Assembly: GCA_964654545.1 (NCBI GenBank)
Contig: CAZZIU010000010.1
Span: forward strand, 14,037 to 78,036
Direction: 5' to 3'
Source of the DNA: an uncultured bacterium
Lineage (GTDB): Bacteria > Fidelibacterota > Marinisomatia > Marinisomatales > JABMOV01
Length of the DNA stretch: 64,000 nt
A model generated the notes under the pieces. The model was not told where the DNA came from and did no database searches. It worked only from the letters and a program-made list of their open reading frames with translations. Below are positions 3,873 to 20,013 of the stretch, in pieces. The position numbers were made by a program, and so were the translations under genes. Position 1 is the stretch's first letter. Each line of letters begins with the position of its first letter.

Positions 3873-6104
3873 ATGAGTATGTTCGCCGAAATTGCATTTC
3901 CAATATCCAGCTATCAAACGTTTACATATAGCATACCAGATGAAATGCAGGTACTGATGGATATTGGTGTCCGAGTTAAAGCACCCCTTGGTAAACGCAT
4001 CGCTCAGGGTGTTGTCGTTTCCATAAGCACCAACTCCTCCTATGCTGGAACGATAAAACCAATCAAATCTCTGGTGGATAGCCAGCGCATTTTGGATCAG
4101 CATTTATGGAAATTGATTCAATGGATTAGTAAATACTACCTTACTCCCATTGGTCAGGTTGCAAGAACCATCTTGCCAAATAAGCTCTCCACTAATTATG
4201 AGCCACGCGGACAATGGATGGTCGAAGCAATTTCCACCGTACCCGATTGGTCAATTCTTCGTAATGCACCGACACAATCCTTGATGTTTAAAACAATCCT
4301 TGAATTCAAGGAACCGGTACCTGTAGCAAAATTGGGAAATCTGGCCAGCAGTCCCCTTACAGCTTGCCGGGCACTGTCAGACAAAAAACTTGTGAAAATC
4401 TGGCAGAAAATTATTCCACCAGATACAACCGGATTCACGTTTAAAGCGCTACACAAAACACTCCGGTTTTCGGAATCACAGAAGCAGGTGCTGGACAAAC
4501 TTTATAATGCGTTAAAGACAAATACGTTTGCACCATACCTGTTGCACGGTGTAACGGGAAGCGGAAAGACTGAAATATATATTTCAACCGCGCAGCAGGC
4601 ACTCAAGCAAGGGAAATCGGTCATAGTGTTATTACCGGAAATTGCACTTACACCACAAATAGGAGGTCGTTTCAGATCCGCATTTGGGGATCGGGTTGGA
4701 CTGTGGCACTCAAAGATGAGCCCGGCTCTTCGTGCATGGACATGGAAACGAATATGTTCTGGCGACTTCCAGGTAATTGTTGGAGCCCGAAGTGCAATTT
4801 TTGCCCCAATGAAAAATCTTGGATTGATTATTGTTGACGAGGAACAGGAAAGCACATATAAGCAAGATGCACCAGCTCCGCGATACCACGCCAGGGATGT
4901 GGCACTCGTTAGGGCCCAATTCCAAAACGCTATTATCATCCTTGCAAGTGCAACCCCAAGCCTTGAGAGTTTTTACAACCAGACACAGCAAAAAATTTCC
5001 TACCTGAATCTACCTGACCGCTACGGAGGAGCGGTTTATCCATATGTCCATCTGGTAGACATGAAAAAAGAGCAGGAAGAATCAGGAAAAGGCGGACAGA
5101 TTTTTAGCGGATTGCTTCTGGAAAAAATTGAGGATCGGCTGCATAAAGAGGAACAGATTATCATTTTGCATAATCGTCGTGGCTATGCACCTGTTATGCA
5201 CTGTTTTTCCTGTGGCGATGTGGTAATGTGTCCGCATTGTAAAATTGCACTAACCTACCATAAAACACATCGGGGTCTGCAGTGTCATTTTTGTGGTTAC
5301 CACACGGTTCATTTACCACAAGATTGTCCAACTTGTCATAGTGATCGATTGCAATTATCAGGTTTGGGAACACAAAGAATTGAGGAATTGCTTGATCGAT
5401 CTTTTCCGGAAGCAAAGATTGTACGCCTGGATCAGGATACGGCGACTTCAGTTCAAAACGTTACGAAGTTGCTTGAGAAATTTGCGGAGGGTGATGGAGA
5501 CATTTTACTGGGTACCCAAATGATAGCCAAAGGTCTGGATTTCGAAAAGGTCACGCTTGCCGGTATTGTGAATGCCGATACCGGATTGTATTTGCCGGAC
5601 TTTAGAGCATCGGAACGGATCTTCCAGCTGATTTATCAGACCGCCGGAAGAACAGGACGCAGGTCCATTCAGGGAGAGGTTGTAATTCAGAGTTACAACC
5701 CAGAAAATCCAGTTATAAAGCATGCTGCACAACTCCATGTAAAAAACTATTATAACATCGCTTTAAGCGATAGACAGGAACTAAATTATCCGCCGTTTAG
5801 TTGGATGGTTAAATTAGAATTTTCTGGCAATCGACAGGAAAAAGTAATATCAGCCGCTGAGGAGATCAGAAAAGCGCTTAACATCAAAAGAAAAGGATTG
5901 GATGTTTTAGGTCCGGCCAATTGTTATAGAGAAAAATTGCGAAACAAATACAGAATGCAAATTGTAATCAAATCCTCCAAGAAAACAGATCCTAATGGTT
6001 CCTATTTGCGGTCCGTAGTTGAAAAAATGATCCCAGATATTAGTCGCGCGAAAAACAGCGGTGTAGCTATCGCAATAGATGTGGATCCAGTTAGCCTGCT
6101 CTGA
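3873..6104 (+). CDS. priA: Primosomal protein N' (helicase)
   Basis: LHGVTGSGKTE, IVDEEQE, ASATPSLES, two CxxC pairs of zinc knuckles, LLGTQMIAKGLDF. Confidence 0.96.
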   Translation: MSMFAEIAFPISSYQTFTYSIPDEMQVLMDIGVRVKAPLGKRIAQGVVVSISTNSSYAGTIKPIKSLVDSQRILDQHLWKLIQWISKYYLTPIGQVARTILPNKLSTNYEPRGQWMVEAISTVPDWSILRNAPTQSLMFKTILEFKEPVPVAKLGNLASSPLTACRALSDKKLVKIWQKIIPPDTTGFTFKALHKTLRFSESQKQVLDKLYNALKTNTFAPYLLHGVTGSGKTEIYISTAQQALKQGKSVIVLLPEIALTPQIGGRFRSAFGDRVGLWHSKMSPALRAWTWKRICSGDFQVIVGARSAIFAPMKNLGLIIVDEEQESTYKQDAPAPRYHARDVALVRAQFQNAIIILASATPSLESFYNQTQQKISYLNLPDRYGGAVYPYVHLVDMKKEQEESGKGGQIFSGLLLEKIEDRLHKEEQIIILHNRRGYAPVMHCFSCGDVVMCPHCKIALTYHKTHRGLQCHFCGYHTVHLPQDCPTCHSDRLQLSGLGTQRIEELLDRSFPEAKIVRLDQDTATSVQNVTKLLEKFAEGDGDILLGTQMIAKGLDFEKVTLAGIVNADTGLYLPDFRASERIFQLIYQTAGRTGRRSIQGEVVIQSYNPENPVIKHAAQLHVKNYYNIALSDRQELNYPPFSWMVKLEFSGNRQEKVISAAEEIRKALNIKRKGLDVLGPANCYREKLRNKYRMQIVIKSSKKTDPNGSYLRSVVEKMIPDISRAKNSGVAIAIDVDPVSLL

Positions 6105-7012
6105 TGAAAAAAATATATTATATTATGATGGTCGCGTTATCCGGCGGGTTGTCAGGGCAGACAACCTATGGAGGGTTAACATCATGGTATCACGCCAATA
6201 CGTTGGCGATGGTTGGTGCTGGATCAGCAATTAGTGGAGATGCCAGCGACCAAATGAATCCGGCGTCAATTAACCCCGATTCACGCAAGTTCACATTCGG
6301 ATTTTTGGCATATCCTGCCGGAATTCGAACAAGCCAGATCAGTTTTACATTTCCAACCCGCTCAGGAGTAACCATGTTCTCAGCCCGGAATGTGAATTAT
6401 GGTGTGTTCGACGGGTTTGATTCACAGGGGTTATCAACAGGTACATACACAGGGTCAGATGTCTTATTATCGGCCGCCTATAATACATACCTGGTTCGTC
6501 CAAGCTTGAAGGCCGGGTTAACAGCTGGTTATTTTACCAGTCGATTAGATACATATTCGTCCTCCTTGACAATCTTTACACCTGGGGTGTTGTATTCCTA
6601 TTCACCTTTTGATATTACTATCGGCTTAAGTTTTCAAAACATGGGAGCAGTCCTGGACGGTTATACCTCTGTAGAAGAAGCATTGCCGGAAACCTATGTT
6701 CTGGGAATCGCCAAAAAACTTGCGCATCTACCTATGGTTCTATGCTCGGATATTGGCGTGTTAAAACATTCGCAGGAATACTGGGTGCGCCTGGCTGGTA
6801 TAATAACGCTCACCCAAAACTTGCAGCTTCGTTGGGGGACCTCCACCCAAAAAATCGATCAGTCTACCCAAATTGATTTGATTAATGATTATCTGGGAAG
6901 TACGGGATTTGGGGTTTCGATCAAGCTAGAGAGCGTAGATATAGACTTTGGATCCTATATGTTCGGTTCTGGTGGCTGGATTTACGGTCTCGGATGTGAA
7001 GTCCGGTTTTAA
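6104..7012 (+). CDS. Outer-membrane beta-barrel, PorQ/PorV-like
   Basis: Signal peptide, NPAS motif, amphipathic strands, QNMG...GIAKKLAHLP segment recalling T9SS PorQ, terminal Phe. Confidence 0.55.
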   Translation: MKKIYYIMMVALSGGLSGQTTYGGLTSWYHANTLAMVGAGSAISGDASDQMNPASINPDSRKFTFGFLAYPAGIRTSQISFTFPTRSGVTMFSARNVNYGVFDGFDSQGLSTGTYTGSDVLLSAAYNTYLVRPSLKAGLTAGYFTSRLDTYSSSLTIFTPGVLYSYSPFDITIGLSFQNMGAVLDGYTSVEEALPETYVLGIAKKLAHLPMVLCSDIGVLKHSQEYWVRLAGIITLTQNLQLRWGTSTQKIDQSTQIDLINDYLGSTGFGVSIKLESVDIDFGSYMFGSGGWIYGLGCEVRF

Positions 7013-7020
7013 ATTCCGGG

Positions 7021-9783
7021 GTGAGTTTAAAAACATTTATCCTGATTGTACTGCTGGGTACAGCCTTTCCCAATAGTGGCACGAATCAATTCCTTGATTT
7101 GTCTTATAACCTTGATATCAAAATTGATGTTTCCGATGGGAACCACCAGATTTCCGGACTCGACAGGGTGTCCGTTACCAACCATTGGGACCAACCCATA
7201 GGTGAACTCTATTTTCACCTGACACCCAACAGCGGGGATAACGCGGGTAACCTAGTGATTGAATCATCACACGCCACGCGAGAAATCCGGATAAGCGGTG
7301 AAGACTCTCCCAGTATGCAGATTGGCCTTTTTCCCGCGTTGAAGCCGGGCGAACAAATTATAATAGACCTTACATTTACAACCACATTGCAAAAAAAGGG
7401 AGGGCCTGAGCTACCATTCGTTTACGAACAGAATGATTATACCATTCTACTATCACAACATTTCTACCCAATTCTGGAATGTTTCCATGAGGATGGGTGG
7501 CACATTGAGCATCATGGCCACGACTATGGACATCCAAAGGAACCTGGGGCATATGAAGTCACCATAAGAACACCAAATCAATATTCGGTTATTACTGCAA
7601 CAAACCCTGCGGATATGGCGTCACTGCCATTACATGAAACGCGCTACACATTTGCTATAAATCAAGCGACGGATTTTGCTTTTGTTGCCACTACAACAAC
7701 CAAAGAGATAAAAGGAACTATCGCCGGCGCAGATATAACATTTTATCCGTCTGATACAAAAAGCGAGGCTACAAACCTTTCCAAAATGTTAAACTCCATT
7801 TTACCAATTTATAGTAGTTGGTTTGGGAGTCTACCACAAAATAAAATGGTTTTTATAGCATTCCCGGGATTACCTGCGCGCGCATTGTCCTGGCACAACA
7901 TGATCGTTTATCATCCAGATCTTATTGATAGCCACACGCTGGGTCATGAATTGGCACGTCAGTGGCTGGGCTTTTTGGTCTATGCGGCTAATCCTAATGA
8001 AGTCTGGTTAAACGAATCACTATCAGAATATTACGTCTGGCGTTATGAGAAATATTTGGAAGAACAAAATAAAAGTGTGGTCAAAAGACACTCCAATGTG
8101 TTCCAACAATTATTCTATAATTACCGCTCTTTTAATCCAGATGAGTGGATGCGATTTGTTTTGGAAACCATGGGAGACCGCGTTGATTATCCCAAATATC
8201 AACCGGGTAAAAACACGCATTGGGAGAGTAGCAGCCATCTGTATTCTCAATATGTGGTAGGCAGTCATGCCCTGCAACTTCTGGAGCACAAGGTTGGCGC
8301 AAATAAAACACTCGACATTGTAAGCACGTATATACAGGACTATGCCGGAAAAGCAGCAACGACCGAAGATTTTATCAGGATTGTTAAAGAAAAATGTGGA
8401 CCAGAAACTGCCCAGAATTTTCGCCTTGCATTGACCACAAATATTCGTCCCGATATTCAGATTCGGAATGTGTCGATGGAAGAACCGTATCCGCACAAAT
8501 GGGAGACGCGCGTCACAACTAAATACGAAGGAGAATGGGTTCTCCCGGTGGATGCGTTAGCCATTACCCAAAAAGGAGACAGTCTAACCCAAAAGCAGTT
8601 AATACTCTCTGAGAACAATGTAATTCTATTCCAATCCACTGAGCCAATTAAAACCATATTAATTGATCCCGAAAACAGAATTTATGATGCAAATCGGTTT
8701 AACAATCGCTGGCCACGAAGACTAATTTTTCGACCCCTGATTGGGAAGCCATCCTGGGATGTGTATTCAGTTTCATACCGACCAAGACTGTATAGAGACT
8801 GGCTTCATAACTGGAGGTTTGGCATAAGAATTACAGGTGGACTTGGTTTAAACCTCATGCCAATTATGCCAGCGCTTTTCCAAAACAGTTTTAACCTGGA
8901 TTTAACCTTTTCAACTGGCATGCCAACGCACAATTGGGGTACAAGGTTTACTTATCGCACACCGCTTTCTTCGATCCACCTTACCTACTGGGATGTCACC
9001 GCGGATTATGCTTATCCACGAAACCGCCAAGTATTATCGCTAATTAATTATATTGGGGAACCTAGCTATTACCTTACCTCAGGAAGGTCAATATACAATA
9101 GATTGGTCACTCAGGTCAGGAGAATTGAATACACGGATACCCTTTCTAGCGGCTGGTGGGAGGAGGGAATTCAGTACTGGATAAGTGAAGAATTCCAACG
9201 GTTTTATTACACAGGTGATAAGCGTTATATGATCCAGGTCTTTGGGCTGGTCGGGCATTCCATGCAATCGAAGGACGCTTTTAACCGTTCGCGCATAATG
9301 ATAGCAGCTGATGGCGAGCAACATCTATGGGATTGGCTGATTGCCAGGGGACATTTGGAATCAGGTTTCACCTGGGATTCAAGACCTGAAGACGTTCTAA
9401 GGTATCGATTACAATATTTGCCTCGGATTTGGAAAGAACGTGAAAACTTTGTTCCCCTTTATCGTGGGTTTGTTGATAAGCCAAACAAATGGTGGAATAC
9501 GGTAGCCGGCGCCGGGGTCAGTTTTGGTTATGAAACGGAGGCCTTTGCGTGGCCAATGTTGTATATGGACATGGCTTTTGTTTCCACGGAAACAGGCAGT
9601 GCCATTGAAAGGTTAAAGGCGCTTTCCTTCTCGTCAAATGCTTATGTGGCTGCTGGTTTGGGGGTTGAATCCCAGTCCATGGTAGAGTTGGGCGTCTATT
9701 TTCCGCTATGGTTATCCAGTCCGCCTTTGGGTGAGCCCAACTGGTATCCACGGGTGATTTTCCAGTGGGGATTCTATTTTTAG
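7021..9783 (+). CDS. M1-family aminopeptidase-like protein (degenerate HExxR) fused to a probable C-terminal beta-barrel
   Basis: GTG start, signal peptide, HELARQW-x-WLNE with canonical 18-residue spacing, aromatic strand-rich C-terminus ending FQWGFYF. Confidence 0.75.
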   Translation: MSLKTFILIVLLGTAFPNSGTNQFLDLSYNLDIKIDVSDGNHQISGLDRVSVTNHWDQPIGELYFHLTPNSGDNAGNLVIESSHATREIRISGEDSPSMQIGLFPALKPGEQIIIDLTFTTTLQKKGGPELPFVYEQNDYTILLSQHFYPILECFHEDGWHIEHHGHDYGHPKEPGAYEVTIRTPNQYSVITATNPADMASLPLHETRYTFAINQATDFAFVATTTTKEIKGTIAGADITFYPSDTKSEATNLSKMLNSILPIYSSWFGSLPQNKMVFIAFPGLPARALSWHNMIVYHPDLIDSHTLGHELARQWLGFLVYAANPNEVWLNESLSEYYVWRYEKYLEEQNKSVVKRHSNVFQQLFYNYRSFNPDEWMRFVLETMGDRVDYPKYQPGKNTHWESSSHLYSQYVVGSHALQLLEHKVGANKTLDIVSTYIQDYAGKAATTEDFIRIVKEKCGPETAQNFRLALTTNIRPDIQIRNVSMEEPYPHKWETRVTTKYEGEWVLPVDALAITQKGDSLTQKQLILSENNVILFQSTEPIKTILIDPENRIYDANRFNNRWPRRLIFRPLIGKPSWDVYSVSYRPRLYRDWLHNWRFGIRITGGLGLNLMPIMPALFQNSFNLDLTFSTGMPTHNWGTRFTYRTPLSSIHLTYWDVTADYAYPRNRQVLSLINYIGEPSYYLTSGRSIYNRLVTQVRRIEYTDTLSSGWWEEGIQYWISEEFQRFYYTGDKRYMIQVFGLVGHSMQSKDAFNRSRIMIAADGEQHLWDWLIARGHLESGFTWDSRPEDVLRYRLQYLPRIWKERENFVPLYRGFVDKPNKWWNTVAGAGVSFGYETEAFAWPMLYMDMAFVSTETGSAIERLKALSFSSNAYVAAGLGVESQSMVELGVYFPLWLSSPPLGEPNWYPRVIFQWGFYF

Positions 9784-15686: not shown

Positions 15687-16772
15687 TTGTATAATACAGG
15701 TAATAGATCGAATTTTGCTGATTCATTATTACAATGGTATAATCAAAACAAACGATCCCTTCCCTGGCGCAGAACAAATGAACCATACTTGGTTTGGATT
15801 TCGGAAATAATGCTGCAACAGACACAAGTCGATACCGTAATACCCTATTTTACCAAATGGATAGAAGCATTTCCCTCAGTAGAAATTGTTGCAAAGACCC
15901 CTTTTGACGATGTGGTAAAATACTGGGAAGGCTTGGGATACTACACACGCTGCAGAAATATTCATAAAACGGCACGTACAATCACAGAAAAATACGGCAG
16001 GCGTTTTCCGGAAAACTATGAAATTCTGATGAGCCTTCCGGGAATAGGCTCATATACTGCCAGCATGATACTAAGTATTTCCTTTGGCAAGCAAAAGCTA
16101 GCAATTGACAGCAATATAATGCGAATTGGGTATCGATTGGCTGGACTAAAGAAAATTTCACGCCAGAACCATAATCGTATGGCAAAGCGATTACAAGGCT
16201 ATCTTTCTGATAACAATCCCGGCGATTTTAATCAGGCATTAATGGATTTGGGTAGTGCGCTTTGTACATCAAAAGAGGCAACGTGCGATTTGTGCCCAAT
16301 CGGTGATTATTGTATAGCGGGAGTAAAAAAGAATCCATTATTGTACCCCGAAGTAAAAAAGAGGAAAAAACCACCGCATTATGATGTAGCTGCAGGAATT
16401 ATTTGGGTGGGGGATACATTTTATATTCAAAAAAGGTCTCATAACGGCCACTTGGGGGGGCTTTGGGAATTTCCAGGCGGAAAAATCAGAAAAAACGAAA
16501 CAGAAGAAGAGGCAGTAGTGCGGGAAATAGCCGAAGAATGTAATTTTTCAGTCGTTCCTGAAAAAAGAATTGGAACGATTAAACACGCATACAGTCATTT
16601 TTCTATTTCATTCACGGTTTACCACTGCACAGGAGTTTCTGAATTAATAAAACAGCAAAATGGGACTGGCCGATGGATCACAAAAGACGAAATTGACGAC
16701 TATACATTTCCCAAAGCAAACCATAAACTATTTGGAATGCTGGATAAACAAGATTGGAGTCGTGATGTTTAG
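15687..16772 (+). CDS. mutY: A/G-specific adenine glycosylase with C-terminal Nudix (MutT-like) domain
   Basis: TTG start; VWISEIMLQQTQV, WEGLGYY, LPGIGSYTA, Cx6Cx2Cx5C Fe-S motif, near-complete Nudix box. Confidence 0.93.
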   Translation: MYNTGNRSNFADSLLQWYNQNKRSLPWRRTNEPYLVWISEIMLQQTQVDTVIPYFTKWIEAFPSVEIVAKTPFDDVVKYWEGLGYYTRCRNIHKTARTITEKYGRRFPENYEILMSLPGIGSYTASMILSISFGKQKLAIDSNIMRIGYRLAGLKKISRQNHNRMAKRLQGYLSDNNPGDFNQALMDLGSALCTSKEATCDLCPIGDYCIAGVKKNPLLYPEVKKRKKPPHYDVAAGIIWVGDTFYIQKRSHNGHLGGLWEFPGGKIRKNETEEEAVVREIAEECNFSVVPEKRIGTIKHAYSHFSISFTVYHCTGVSELIKQQNGTGRWITKDEIDDYTFPKANHKLFGMLDKQDWSRDV

Positions 16773-17475
16773 GACACCGGTATCCATTTTAATATATTTT
16801 TTGGGAATTCTGGTATTTGTGCTATCGGCGTCGGTGTATTTATTTCTGGCACTGTTTATTAACCCAAAATCATTGCATCCAGTAGCGAGAATAATTTGCC
16901 GAACGTTTTTACTGGCATGCGGTCAATGGGTTACCTATTCAGGTGAAAGGCCACCATCGGCAGGGGGACCATATCTGTATATGTTTAATCATCAATCCAT
17001 GTTTGATGGGTTTCTTTTAGTAGGCTCATTTAATCATTATGTCACAGGCGTCGGAGCACAGAAACAATTTTCATGGTTTATCTGGGGTTGGATCGTAAAG
17101 CGATATGGGGTGATACCCATTAAAAGATCTCGACTGAATGAAGCAATTCATAGCCTGGACGCTATGGAGAAAATTATGAAGGAGGGGACATCATGCCTGA
17201 TTTCACCGGAAGGTACCCGAACTTTGACCGGTGAAATAGGACCGTTTAAAAAAGGGCCCTTTCATGTGGCAATGAACACCAAAGCCACCATTGTACCAAT
17301 CGGCATTGATGGTGCATTTCGGGCGAAATCAAAAAACAACTGGCGATTTTCACCGGGGAAAATTTCTGTAACATATGGCAAATTCATCACCTGGGAAGAT
17401 TATAAGGATCATTCTCTTGAAGAATTACGGAAGACAGTAAAAGAAAAGATTAGTAAATTAGCTGATAATGGATGA
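16765..17475 (+). CDS. plsC: 1-acyl-sn-glycerol-3-phosphate acyltransferase (LPLAT)
   Basis: NHQSMFD, SPEGTR, FKKGPF. Start moved to ATG 16765, which overlaps the mutY end. Confidence 0.85.
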   Translation: MFRTPVSILIYFLGILVFVLSASVYLFLALFINPKSLHPVARIICRTFLLACGQWVTYSGERPPSAGGPYLYMFNHQSMFDGFLLVGSFNHYVTGVGAQKQFSWFIWGWIVKRYGVIPIKRSRLNEAIHSLDAMEKIMKEGTSCLISPEGTRTLTGEIGPFKKGPFHVAMNTKATIVPIGIDGAFRAKSKNNWRFSPGKISVTYGKFITWEDYKDHSLEELRKTVKEKISKLADNG

Positions 17476-17533: not shown

Positions 17534-19051
17534 ATGCGTCTATCTGATATGGTTTGTGTTGTAACGGGTGCCGGAGGCGGCGTTGGAGGGGCACTGGTTA
17601 ATGCTCTTCAGAGTTCAAATGCAACGACTGTCGCGGTACATCGAGGCCGGTTCTCATCCATTATGGAGACTCGACCAAAGTTATTCACCGTAAAATGTGA
17701 TCTTACTGATGATGTTTCGGTACAAACGCTGGTTCAAAATATCACCGAATCAATTGGTCCGATTCATGTTTGGATCAATACTGCTGGTGGTTTTCATATG
17801 GGCGAAACGGTCGAGGAAGCACCATTAGATAGCTGGCGCAAAATGCTATCAATTAATTTTATAACAACCCTCAATTGCAGCCGTGCAGTACTGCCGGTGA
17901 TGAAAAAAAACAAATACGGCAGAATCATCAATTTTGGAAGCTTTCCCGGCGAAGAAGGAATGTCACAAGGAGCGCCTTATGCTGTTTCGAAGGCTGCCGT
18001 TCACACCCTGACAAAAACCATTTGGCAAGAAGGAAAAACCTTTGGTGTTAGCGCACATGCATTGTTGCCAACGACAATCGATACACCTGGGAATCGTGAA
18101 GCAATGCCCAACGAGGATTGGAGTAATTGGGTTACCACAAAAGATATTGCTGATAAAATTATTGAGATAATCACATCACCGGGCATTGATCGGGATCCTG
18201 GCCAAATCATCATTCCCCTGAGAGGGTCCACACAGCAAAGCGCATCAGCAAAACCAGCGGCGTTACTGGATATCTTTGGCTCATCAGCAAAAAGTGAGAC
18301 ACCGGAACCATCTGCAGAAACGGTCCGGGAAAAAAGTTCTCAGATTCCTGTCGTACCGGCAGACGAGGTTAAAAAACAATCCATTGACCTCGATACTTCG
18401 GATTGGCAACCCGTTAATTCAAAAGGCGATTCTGATACATTTGAGCAAGACACCCCGGGAGCAAAAGAGGTAACCACCGCGAATCTCATCGATAAGGTAC
18501 CAAGTGAAACACCTGATCTTGCAGAGGATGATACCAAACTGGAAGTAGACCTTGAAGAATGGGAGCCAAAAGAAAGCTCAGAGGAAACTTCCCAAGCGCA
18601 TGAAGACGTAGCTCAAGAGGAGGGCAGTACGGGAAAAAGCCTACAGGATATATTCAGAAAAACCGATGTGGCGGTTGATGCTGAAGGCAGTAAAATAAAT
18701 CCGGATATGGCTTCGTTCGAAATGGTCGAACACCTCAAAATTCGTCAGCAATATGATAAAGCACTTGCCATGTTAGCGATTATGGAAGAGAATGGCGCTG
18801 ATATTGATCGTATCAAGGATGAGCGGGACGAGATACAGGAATTGATTTATCCTTCCAAGGACGAAGACACGTCGGGAGAAAATGAAACGGAAGAAGAAAA
18901 CGATCAAGATACAGCTAAGAAGGAAGAGTCCACAGGGGAATCTGAGGAGGAAGAGGATTTGGATCTAGCCGGTTATCTGGACCGTATAGCCGAAGAAAAT
19001 AAAAAAGAAAAAAAAGAAGCCGACTCACCAGTAGATAAAAAAAAAGACTAA
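17534..19051 (+). CDS. SDR oxidoreductase with long acidic linker; probably the 5' part of a frameshifted gene running to 20013
   Basis: TGAGGGVG, NTAGG, NFGS, YAVSK in the first ~230 aa; D/E-rich remainder; ends just after an A9 tract. Confidence 0.8.
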   Translation: MRLSDMVCVVTGAGGGVGGALVNALQSSNATTVAVHRGRFSSIMETRPKLFTVKCDLTDDVSVQTLVQNITESIGPIHVWINTAGGFHMGETVEEAPLDSWRKMLSINFITTLNCSRAVLPVMKKNKYGRIINFGSFPGEEGMSQGAPYAVSKAAVHTLTKTIWQEGKTFGVSAHALLPTTIDTPGNREAMPNEDWSNWVTTKDIADKIIEIITSPGIDRDPGQIIIPLRGSTQQSASAKPAALLDIFGSSAKSETPEPSAETVREKSSQIPVVPADEVKKQSIDLDTSDWQPVNSKGDSDTFEQDTPGAKEVTTANLIDKVPSETPDLAEDDTKLEVDLEEWEPKESSEETSQAHEDVAQEEGSTGKSLQDIFRKTDVAVDAEGSKINPDMASFEMVEHLKIRQQYDKALAMLAIMEENGADIDRIKDERDEIQELIYPSKDEDTSGENETEEENDQDTAKKEESTGESEEEEDLDLAGYLDRIAEENKKEKKEADSPVDKKKD

Positions 19052-20013
19052 TCCCGTTTAGTATTCTTGCCGTTGCTTTAGCATCCATCCTAATCATTGT
19101 AATCTGGATTGTTTTTAGCAGAGAACCACCAACCGAAATTATTATTGACGATATTCCAACGTTTACAGTTTTAGATACTCTCCAAAGACCAGACACAATC
19201 CTTATGGATACAACACCACATTTCTCAATAATTCAAGATAGTATTCCCATAATCGATTCATCGCTAACCATGTTTGTAGAGGACACATTTTCAATGGGTG
19301 CCATTGCAATCGACACAGCTCCGGATACGCTTGTGGTTATGGCTGTGGAACCTCAACCAGAGGAAGAAACAAGTATTGATTCTATCCCACAACCGGAAGA
19401 TGTAATAGTTGAAACAACCACTACCGCGATTCATAATGTCCCGATAGTAAGATTAGAACAGGAACCCCCAGTAACAGAAACCAGACTGGATACAATTGTA
19501 AGTGATTCAGGAGATTTAATTGAGCCTCCAGTTGCTGAAGTCATGATCGACACGATCCCAGTACAATGGGTGAAGGATACCACAAAAATATATTCACCCC
19601 AGGATACTGTAGTAGTGGCAATCACGGACCCGGATACATTAATGGTACTACGCCAATACAACCTGGCAGCACAATATTGGAAATTGGAAAAACTTCAAAA
19701 CATGGATCATTTTACCATAGTGCTTATGTATGCCTGTTCAGGAGCAACCGTTGACAGTGCAAAAAACATTTTATCAAACCCGAATGACATGTTTATCCTG
19801 CCAAAAGATGTGGATAATCGCAGCTGTTATATTGTTTGCTGGGGAGATTTCGAAACCAGAAAACAGGCCGAAGAACGATTTACAATGGTACCCAACTGGT
19901 TCGCTCAAAACGGTCTGGTCCCGATGGTGCGACCCTTATTTAAAATTGATAGATTAACGCGTCTATCCCTAACACGCCTTATTATTGAAAACGATCATAT
20001 AAAGAGAGAATAA
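19039..20013 (+). CDS. Membrane anchor, D-[ST] stalk and DamX-like SPOR domain; reached by a -1 shift from the SDR ORF
   Basis: Frame is open from 19039 (KKRLIPFSILAVALASILIIVIWIVFSR) with no ATG/GTG/TTG before the hydrophobic helix; CYIVCWGDFETRKQAEE...VPNWF resembles DamX-type SPOR. Confidence 0.6.
   Translation, partial: KKRLIPFSILAVALASILIIVIWIVFSREPPTEIIIDDIPTFTVLDTLQRPDTILMDTTPHFSIIQDSIPIIDSSLTMFVEDTFSMGAIAIDTAPDTLVVMAVEPQPEEETSIDSIPQPEDVIVETTTTAIHNVPIVRLEQEPPVTETRLDTIVSDSGDLIEPPVAEVMIDTIPVQWVKDTTKIYSPQDTVVVAITDPDTLMVLRQYNLAAQYWKLEKLQNMDHFTIVLMYACSGATVDSAKNILSNPNDMFILPKDVDNRSCYIVCWGDFETRKQAEERFTMVPNWFAQNGLVPMVRPLFKIDRLTRLSLTRLIIENDHIKRE

Follow-up and report, generated by a model that had tools for sequence, protein, structure and literature searches.

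In a 64,000-nucleotide stretch of DNA from an uncultured member of the Fidelibacterota (GenBank assembly GCA_964654545.1, contig CAZZIU010000010.1, positions 14,037 to 78,036 of the forward strand; hereafter the window), the gene for a short-chain dehydrogenase/reductase (SDR) stops one codon past a run of nine A's, and the -1 frame, which opens inside the same run, goes on to encode a predicted transmembrane (TM) helix, a stalk and a SPOR-like domain. The split is conserved, since the downstream open reading frame (ORF) lies in the -1 frame at all 15 complete junctions found, on independent contigs from six lineages. The two ORFs would be parts of one ancestral gene for a bitopic inner-membrane protein, and slippage of RNA polymerase on the run is probably the main source of a long, anchored isoform made beside a short, soluble one.

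The SDR gene is split at a poly-A run

The upstream ORF of the window encodes a classical SDR domain, followed by a long acidic linker and a lysine-rich tail, and the protein ends ...SPVDKKKD*. T19036 and the first two A's of the run (19037-38) form a TAA that shuts the -1 frame right at the run; from 19039 this frame is open (KKRLIPFSILAVALASILIIVIWIVFSREPP...) as far as the stop at 20011-20013. Its earliest ATG, GTG or TTG is the ATG at 19204, codon 56, which lies past the TM helix; over 19039..19203 both the 0 and the +1 frame contain many stops. Insertion of one A gives a continuous product of 826 aa, with the order SDR, acidic linker, KKKR, TM helix, stalk and SPOR-like domain. In each of these respects (the A9 at 19037-19045, the DKKKD* end, the -1 frame open from 19039, the lack of a standard start before the helix, the fused product and its order of parts) the first-pass annotation, made from the letters alone, had read the locus correctly. 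The 269-aa ORF at 19204..20013 is probably no real independent product. The window has one A/T run of length nine and none longer, five of length eight and 28 of length seven; the A9 by itself is not improbable for this composition, and its significance comes from the comparison across lineages. Two more A8 runs lie in frame within the SDR ORF (17903-17910, encoding MKKNK, and 19008-19015, encoding EKKE), and three of the six A-runs of at least eight in the window fall in the SDR gene. The TAA at the start of the A9 would also stop any frame shifted at the upstream A8 run, 19008-19015.

Syntenic loci were obtained by homolog searches and contig look-ups in Candidatus Neomarinimicrobiota, now Fidelibacterota (Marinimicrobia, SAR406). 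Word-indexed homolog searches returned only a handful of relatives, to which scans of genome and metagenome contigs added L011 alone. The common gene order is ferritin-like, MarR, MutY, PlsC acyltransferase, SDR, X, DJ-1/PfpI, HAD, UPF0093 and FGGY kinase, X being the downstream ORF. An independent ENA contig encodes an identical 505-aa protein with the same A9 and the same frames, and carries several single-nucleotide polymorphisms downstream. At all 15 complete junctions (Table 1) the -1 frame is shut by a TAA that the first two A's form with the T before them; beyond it, this frame encodes two or three basic residues and then the TM helix. The 0-frame stop lies no more than one or two codons past the run in five of the six lineages, and nine codons past it in L022. 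Identity between these lineages falls as low as 57% for the SDR domain and 52-53% for the C-terminal one.

Table 1. Junctions of the six split lineages and of one fused ortholog; T positions and T-containing codons refer to the first locus named in each row
Loci	Contigs	Junction	Position of T	T-containing codon
Window, L001	2	GAT A9 GAC TAA	19036	GAT
L002-L006	5	CTT A9 GAC TAA	3956	CTT
L007-L011	5	GAT A11 G TAA	5680	GAT
L013	1	GAT A11 T TAA	4632	GAT
L022	1	AGT A10 ..., stop 9 codons on	3887	AGT
L023	1	GGT A10 GC TAG	433	GGT
L019 (fused)		GAA ATA AAA AAA AAG AAG TCT TTT	4970	ATA

In four lineages, codons 56, 15 (in the middle of the TM helix), 94 and 64 supply the first ATG, GTG or TTG of the downstream frame; the first such codon of L023 is an ATG on the N-terminal border of the helix, and that of L022 is a TTG close to where the helix ends. 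These differing positions indicate that there is no conserved initiation site downstream of the run. The genes called there in orthologs are inconsistent in the same way, with lengths of 308, 238, 250, 218 and 276 aa and starts placed inside the TM helix, at its edge or far past it.

The run is preceded by a T in each of the six split lineages and also in the fused L019, though the codons that contain it differ. Two independent assemblies break at the run: the L014 contig ends within it (4624-4635), after at least 12 A's, its close relative L013 having A11 followed by T, and the L004 contig begins 6 nt before it (1-20). Such breaks could reflect heterogeneity of tract length among reads or a T-to-A substitution. 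L014 and L016 (GCA_011682625.1) are labelled 'Simkaniaceae bacterium' (Chlamydiota) at NCBI; because they share the gene order and about 75-80% protein identity with the Marinimicrobia loci, the GCA_011682625.1 bin or its label is probably wrong for these contigs.

The downstream frame is under selection and descends from a fused gene

Over the last 125 codons the proportion of synonymous differences among four closer lineages is saturated (pS 0.71-0.83) and that of nonsynonymous differences is far lower (pN 0.11-0.23), and so the downstream ORF is translated and under strong purifying selection. The last 30 residues of the downstream protein are nearly identical among lineages. Since the frame is selected, begins with a TM helix, lacks a start of its own and is closed upstream, it can be reached only from the SDR frame.

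Single-ORF orthologs with the same domain order occur in two deeper lineages, the 946-aa P0130 (locus L019) and the 738-aa P0131 (locus L020), and both occupy the same syntenic slot after PlsC. These fused proteins consist of SDR, acidic linker, basic patch, TM helix, stalk and C-terminal domain, and their linkers carry the motif F-x-M-V-x-H-L-K-x-R...A-L-x-x-L. At the L019 junction a T and an in-frame A9 encode IKKKK before the TM helix; the L020 fused ortholog has no A-run at its junction. The simple fusions found among the deeper orthologs show the full-length protein to be the ancestral functional unit. The lysine patch of the positive-inside signal thus turned into an A-run, which in one clade is fixed one base short. 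Orthologs both close and fairly distant show the split, at a conserved T plus A9-11, and the deeper ones are fused; with some orthologs split, no proven downstream start and no conserved start before or within the TM helix, the comparison sustains the case for recoding made in the first-pass annotation.

A further Marinimicrobia locus, L017, has after PlsC a stand-alone 235-aa SDR with neither TM nor SPOR part. Between this gene and DJ-1 lie 480 nt (5709-6188) with no convincing ORF, which may be a remnant from the loss of the TM and SPOR part, and a phage-integrase-like gene follows DJ-1 (6910-8268).

Slippage, ribosomal frameshifting and other possible routes to the downstream frame

In the mechanism we propose, the frame is permanently displaced by one base in the genomes of one Marinimicrobia clade, at a T+A9-11 tract coding for the lysine patch. 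Standard decoding would give the soluble 505-aa protein of SDR and linker, which ends one codon past the run. In a fraction of transcripts RNA polymerase would slip and add one A (a change of -2 or +4 would also serve), and these messages would be read ...VDKKKRLIPF... into the TM helix and SPOR-like domain, giving the 826-aa anchored isoform. A -1 ribosomal shift on A_AAA_AAA or A_AAA_AAG, perhaps aided by the adjacent stop, may contribute. The run would in this way set the proportions in which one gene supplies a free enzyme and one tethered to the envelope.

The sole conserved nucleotide feature at the junction is the T followed by nine or more A's. RNAalifold found 0 pairs over the six junctions, single-sequence folds of the downstream 80 nt were unremarkable (z -1.3 to +1.9), and Rfam showed no frameshift element at the junction. 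A Shine-Dalgarno (SD)-like GAGGA occurs only in the A11 lineages and is absent from the window (ccagtagat), L002, L022 and L023. With no conserved structure or SD-like element, transcriptional slippage is favoured over stimulated -1 frameshifting. Between the two ORFs no terminator was found, and promoter-like sites are at chance level. The locus has the features by which slippage sites are recognized, namely a run of at least nine A's at the junction, a selected downstream frame with no start, and conservation of both run and frame among orthologs. In many bacteria, selection against runs prone to slippage becomes apparent from a length of nine A's or T's (PMC1088944).

The long isoform might instead arise mainly by programmed -1 ribosomal frameshifting on A_AAA_AAA (A_AAA_AAG in L007), with possible help from the nearby stop, although we regard this as unlikely. 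A canonical X_XXY_YYZ heptamer is present in the 0 frame of all lineages (in the window it lies within GAT AAA AAA AAA), L007 and L011 have the exact motif of E. coli dnaX, A_AAA_AAG, followed by TAA, and in the A11 lineages GAGGA lies 3-4 nt upstream; moreover, AAA-AAA alone is reported to cause measurable -1 shifting in E. coli (PMC1851650). However, a downstream hairpin or pseudoknot is not conserved at the junctions, the upstream GAGGA is confined as described above, and a heptamer would suffice for ribosomal shifting, yet six lineages keep at least nine A's, the threshold for slippage (PMC1088944).

Several points weigh against slippage as the principal route, or against recoding as such. 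That slippage takes place is inferred here from sequence conservation, and so are its efficiency, its predominance over ribosomal shifting and the role of a tethered enzyme. A_AAA_AAA and A_AAA_AAG with a close stop are bona fide -1 shift sites too, and because slippage and a -1 shift give the same protein, the choice between them is a matter of judgement. AAA makes up 76% of the Lys codons here, so that an unbroken run over a KKK patch is weak evidence of selection at the nucleotide level (about 0.035 for 12 codons). In close strain pairs the start-less segment shows 0-8 differences and is too similar for selection to be assessed. Finally, independent initiation would be possible in L023, with its ATG at the TM edge, and in L002 and L022, with a GTG and a TTG, respectively, inside the helix.

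These starts lead to a different explanation, true gene fission, in which the downstream protein begins at a non-canonical or lineage-specific codon (ATC, ATT or CTG; GTG or ATG), possibly by termination-reinitiation. Besides the ATG of L023 and the GTG of L002, near-cognate codons just past the run (CTA ATC in the window, where TAATC overlaps the stop) speak for it. However, the six lineages share no start or near-cognate codon at a conserved position, the helix of L007 and L013 offers nothing but ATA or ATT, and a start within the helix would forfeit the KK(K/R/N) positive-inside patch, which every lineage retains in the -1 frame. Fission also does not predict that the break falls exactly on the slippery run in every lineage, and we consider it highly improbable. 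Reinitiation at the TAATC overlap (19049-19053) was considered as a specific candidate and rejected, as the overlap is conserved in no other lineage.

The first-pass annotation had left it open whether the gene is recoded or phase-variable; conservation of the junction upholds the former, and the out-of-frame state of every complete junction speaks against the latter. In phase variation, replication slippage would alter the tract length in the DNA and switch the anchored isoform ON or OFF in subpopulations, for which a homopolymer at a domain boundary would be well placed; the breaks of the L014 and L004 assemblies at the tract could also reflect heterogeneity among reads. However, tract length is fixed in each lineage, the 15 out-of-frame junctions come from many samples, and ON lengths would be expected in some consensus assemblies. 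In-frame and out-of-frame alleles, which together mark a contingency locus, were not found side by side, the truncated L014 run (at least 12 A's) being ambiguous, and switching at the level of DNA is therefore a shade less credible even than fission. Homopolymers are error-prone in some sequencing chemistries, and a sequencing or assembly error had been the main alternative of the first-pass annotation, but such an error, or recent decay to a pseudogene, has a negligible chance of being right and sequencing error is rejected, given the identical arrangement in independent assemblies from different studies and lineages, a downstream ORF that has stayed open under strong purifying selection across saturated synonymous divergence, and the dense, long, unbroken ORFs of the rest of the window.

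The SDR enzyme, its linker and its neighbours

The N-terminal part of the protein is a classical SDR (Table 2). The motifs TGAGGGVG, NTAGG and YAVSK are read in the translation, with cofactor and catalytic motifs intact. The best NCBIfam match is FabG-like but scores 125 bits, against equivalog cut-offs of 288-352, and the nearest solved relatives of the domain in the Protein Data Bank (PDB) are generic SDRs; on both counts no substrate is assigned. The sole hint of its metabolism is the invariant PlsC neighbour, which would be compatible with a role in lipid metabolism. More distant homologs of the SDR are stand-alone proteins of 220-240 aa.

Within the acidic linker lies a cytoplasmic helical motif that is nearly identical among the split orthologs. 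A hidden Markov model (HMM) of this motif matches only the subgroup with an SDR head, fused orthologs included; the motif can be recognised in all relatives with that head, and not in the proteins with a DUF4388 head that are described below. The motif, of about 50 aa (INPDMASFEMVEHLKIRQQYDKALAMLAIMEENGA...ERDEIQELIY), resembles a single TPR-like hairpin and may be a site of protein interaction.

Table 2. Features of the split SDR locus in the window
Feature	Coordinates	Strand	Remarks
Upstream ORF (0 frame)	17534..19051	+	505 aa; ORF list
SDR catalytic domain	17552..18112	+	aa 7-193; Pfam adh_short E 1.2e-37
Cytoplasmic helical motif in linker	18692..18850	+	KINPDMASFEMVEHLKIRQQYDKALAMLAIMEENGADIDRIKDERDEIQELIY
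Putative recoding site, T + A9	19036..19045	+	T19036, exactly nine A's at 19037-19045
-1-frame segment without canonical start	19039..19203	+	KKR, TM helix, beginning of stalk
0-frame stop TAA	19049..19051	+	One codon past A9
Single-pass TM helix (predicted)	19057..19113	+	FSILAVALASILIIVIWIV; KKKR on cytoplasmic side before helix
Periplasmic stalk	19117..19626	+	D/T/P/I-rich; 'DTIP' and 'PDTL' motifs
ORF of standard gene callers	19204..20013	+	269 aa from ATG 19204; without TM helix
C-terminal SPOR-like domain	19627..20010	+	beta-alpha-beta-beta-alpha-beta core at about 19711-19935

Upstream of the SDR gene, the maximal ORFs of MutY (15687-16772) and of the PlsC-like acyltransferase (16660-17475) overlap by 113 nt. 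The corresponding called genes in relatives overlap by 8 nt only, and the true start of PlsC in the window is therefore probably near 16765 (MFRTPVS...).

The membrane anchor and the SPOR-like domain

The predicted TM helix is the most hydrophobic 19-residue segment, with a Kyte-Doolittle mean of 2.98. Although sequence identity is low, each of the six split lineages has a TM helix at this position, and so do the fused orthologs. The stalk that follows is weakly conserved and variable in length, as judged from the ortholog alignment.

The C-terminal domain is a remote relative of the SPOR fold, as seen in profile comparison and in a predicted structure. Several searches gave nothing: Pfam SPOR (PF05036) did not match the window protein at E up to 1, neither Pfam nor NCBIfam had a match to the downstream protein, and a profile built from five close orthologs returned only noise against PDB sequences. 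An exhaustive HMM search with the domain then retrieved 389 proteins (E up to 0.001), mostly unannotated. A family profile of 47 sequences matches the SPOR structure of E. coli DamX (2LFV) across the whole domain with E 2.8e-4. An AlphaFold2 (AF2) model made from a 5-sequence alignment was unusable (pLDDT 43); with the depth gained from the exhaustive search, a 47-sequence alignment gave pLDDT 90.5 and pTM 0.80. This model has a beta-alpha-beta-beta-alpha-beta core, with two helices on its N-terminal side and one on its C-terminal side. Against the PDB, Foldseek places 2LFV of DamX first (prob 1.00), followed by 1X60 of CwlC (0.99) and then 6ZTG of DedD; the RlpA SPOR structures 6I09/6I05 match with TMt 0.64.

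DamX is therefore the top match both by profile and by structure, and the resemblance extends to the layout of the whole protein. As in E. coli DamX (and DedD, FtsN and RlpA), the N-terminus would be cytoplasmic, and one TM helix and a low-complexity periplasmic linker would lead to a SPOR fold at the C-terminus. The placement of the domain is that of a SPOR domain, being C-terminal and predicted to be extracytoplasmic, behind a TM anchor and a low-complexity linker; in 148 proteins the median distance from its end to the C-terminus is 2 residues. However, the cytoplasmic part is an SDR enzyme here, the domain fails Pfam SPOR, and only this SPOR-like family has the invariant Cys pair and the additional helices at the N- and C-terminal ends. 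The single highly conserved residue of SPOR domains, a Gln in beta1 that hydrogen-bonds NAM/NAG (RlpA Q270, DamX Q351; PMC6895207), is Val in the window protein (FTIVLM); in the wider family, 66 of 154 domains have the Gln. Thus, the DamX-like SPOR domain of the first-pass annotation holds as far as the profile match to 2LFV and Foldseek go, but not in its Pfam SPOR match or its hallmark Gln.

The Cys pair comprises an 'AC' in beta1 and 'xC[YF]xxCWG' in beta3. It is plausibly a periplasmic disulfide, by parallel with the SPOR domain of FtsN, in which a disulfide is essential (10.1101/2022.07.01.498525). Binding of denuded peptidoglycan and the septal anchoring proposed in the first-pass annotation are candidate functions of the domain.

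The fusion of SDR and SPOR, which the first-pass annotation had thought unusual, turns out to be the architecture of a recurrent family; a literature search for SDR-SPOR fusions returned nothing relevant. Among 89 sampled family members, 44 have DUF4388 (PF14332) in place of an SDR as their N-terminal cytoplasmic part. Pfam SPOR matches 5 of 89 remote members (P0132-P0220; E up to 0.01). In a sister group (P0123-P0129), P0129 and P0123 have a degenerate SDR, with an eroded GxGG, and two tandem SPOR-like domains; the second copy of P0129 just passes Pfam SPOR, with 21.6 bits against a gathering (GA) cut-off of 21.

Comparison with known recoded genes

One of the closest parallels is tssM of C. 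rodentium and Y. pseudotuberculosis (Gueguen et al., 2014). In C. rodentium tssM1, an A11 lies before a premature stop, mRNAs have from A10 to A15, and the two length variants, both of them required, are made without stimulators of programmed frameshifting (PMC4256274). The SDR locus resembles tssM in having a poly-A run just before a premature stop in the gene for an inner-membrane protein, in the restoration of a C-terminal periplasmic domain by added A's (which here would be added in the way proposed above) and in the lack of an SD element or hairpin as stimulator. However, TssM is a component of the membrane complex of the T6SS (type VI secretion system) and is still embedded in the membrane when truncated, whereas the short form here has no TM helix, so that the two isoforms would differ in compartment. 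Moreover, the mechanism has been demonstrated for tssM and is deduced from sequence here.

In T. thermophilus dnaX, slippage on an A9 leads to about 50% alternative product (PMC1088944). As in dnaX (A9 in Thermus, A_AAA_AAG in E. coli), a stop lies close by in the alternative frame and products of two lengths would result; however, standard decoding of dnaX gives the long form and recoding the short one, which is the reverse of the situation here, and the SDR junction conserves neither the SD-like element nor the stem-loop of E. coli dnaX. The mxiE gene of Shigella flexneri requires a one-nucleotide non-templated insertion at a homopolymer for its long product (PMC1088944). It too consists of two overlapping ORFs from which the longer, functional protein is obtained through one inserted nucleotide, but its T-run lies near the 5' end of a gene for a transcription activator and no change of compartment is involved.

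By analogy with tssM, it is possible, though we hold this only tentatively, that the split is an evolved isoform switch and not a tolerated lesion, setting a heritable and perhaps condition-dependent ratio of free cytoplasmic enzyme to enzyme linked across the membrane to a putatively peptidoglycan-binding SPOR-like domain, both forms being needed. As part of the same proposal, and as speculative, the Cys-pair SPOR-like domain may represent a new SPOR branch whose ligand specificity is altered.

Significance

Conserved recoding in cellular, non-mobile bacterial genes is, to our knowledge, rare, being limited to dnaX, prfB, mxiE, tssM and a few others. The SDR locus would be a new and unusually well-conserved example of poly-A recoding of a known kind, most likely giving two isoforms, in an uncharacterised SDR-TM-SPOR-like family, and one that has been kept across deep divergence in an abundant, uncultured ocean phylum. 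All gene callers and public annotations examined split the locus into two genes, with arbitrary starts for the downstream one. The analysis also delineates an unannotated family of SPOR-like domains, and the SDR-TM-SPOR architecture ties a cytoplasmic redox enzyme, whose gene always adjoins PlsC, to the cell envelope. The outcome of recoding would itself be new, in that the shift decides on the presence of a membrane anchor and of a predicted periplasmic, cell-wall-binding module. If the proposal is true, recoding would here be seen for the first time to determine whether a metabolic enzyme stays soluble or becomes anchored at the envelope or division site.

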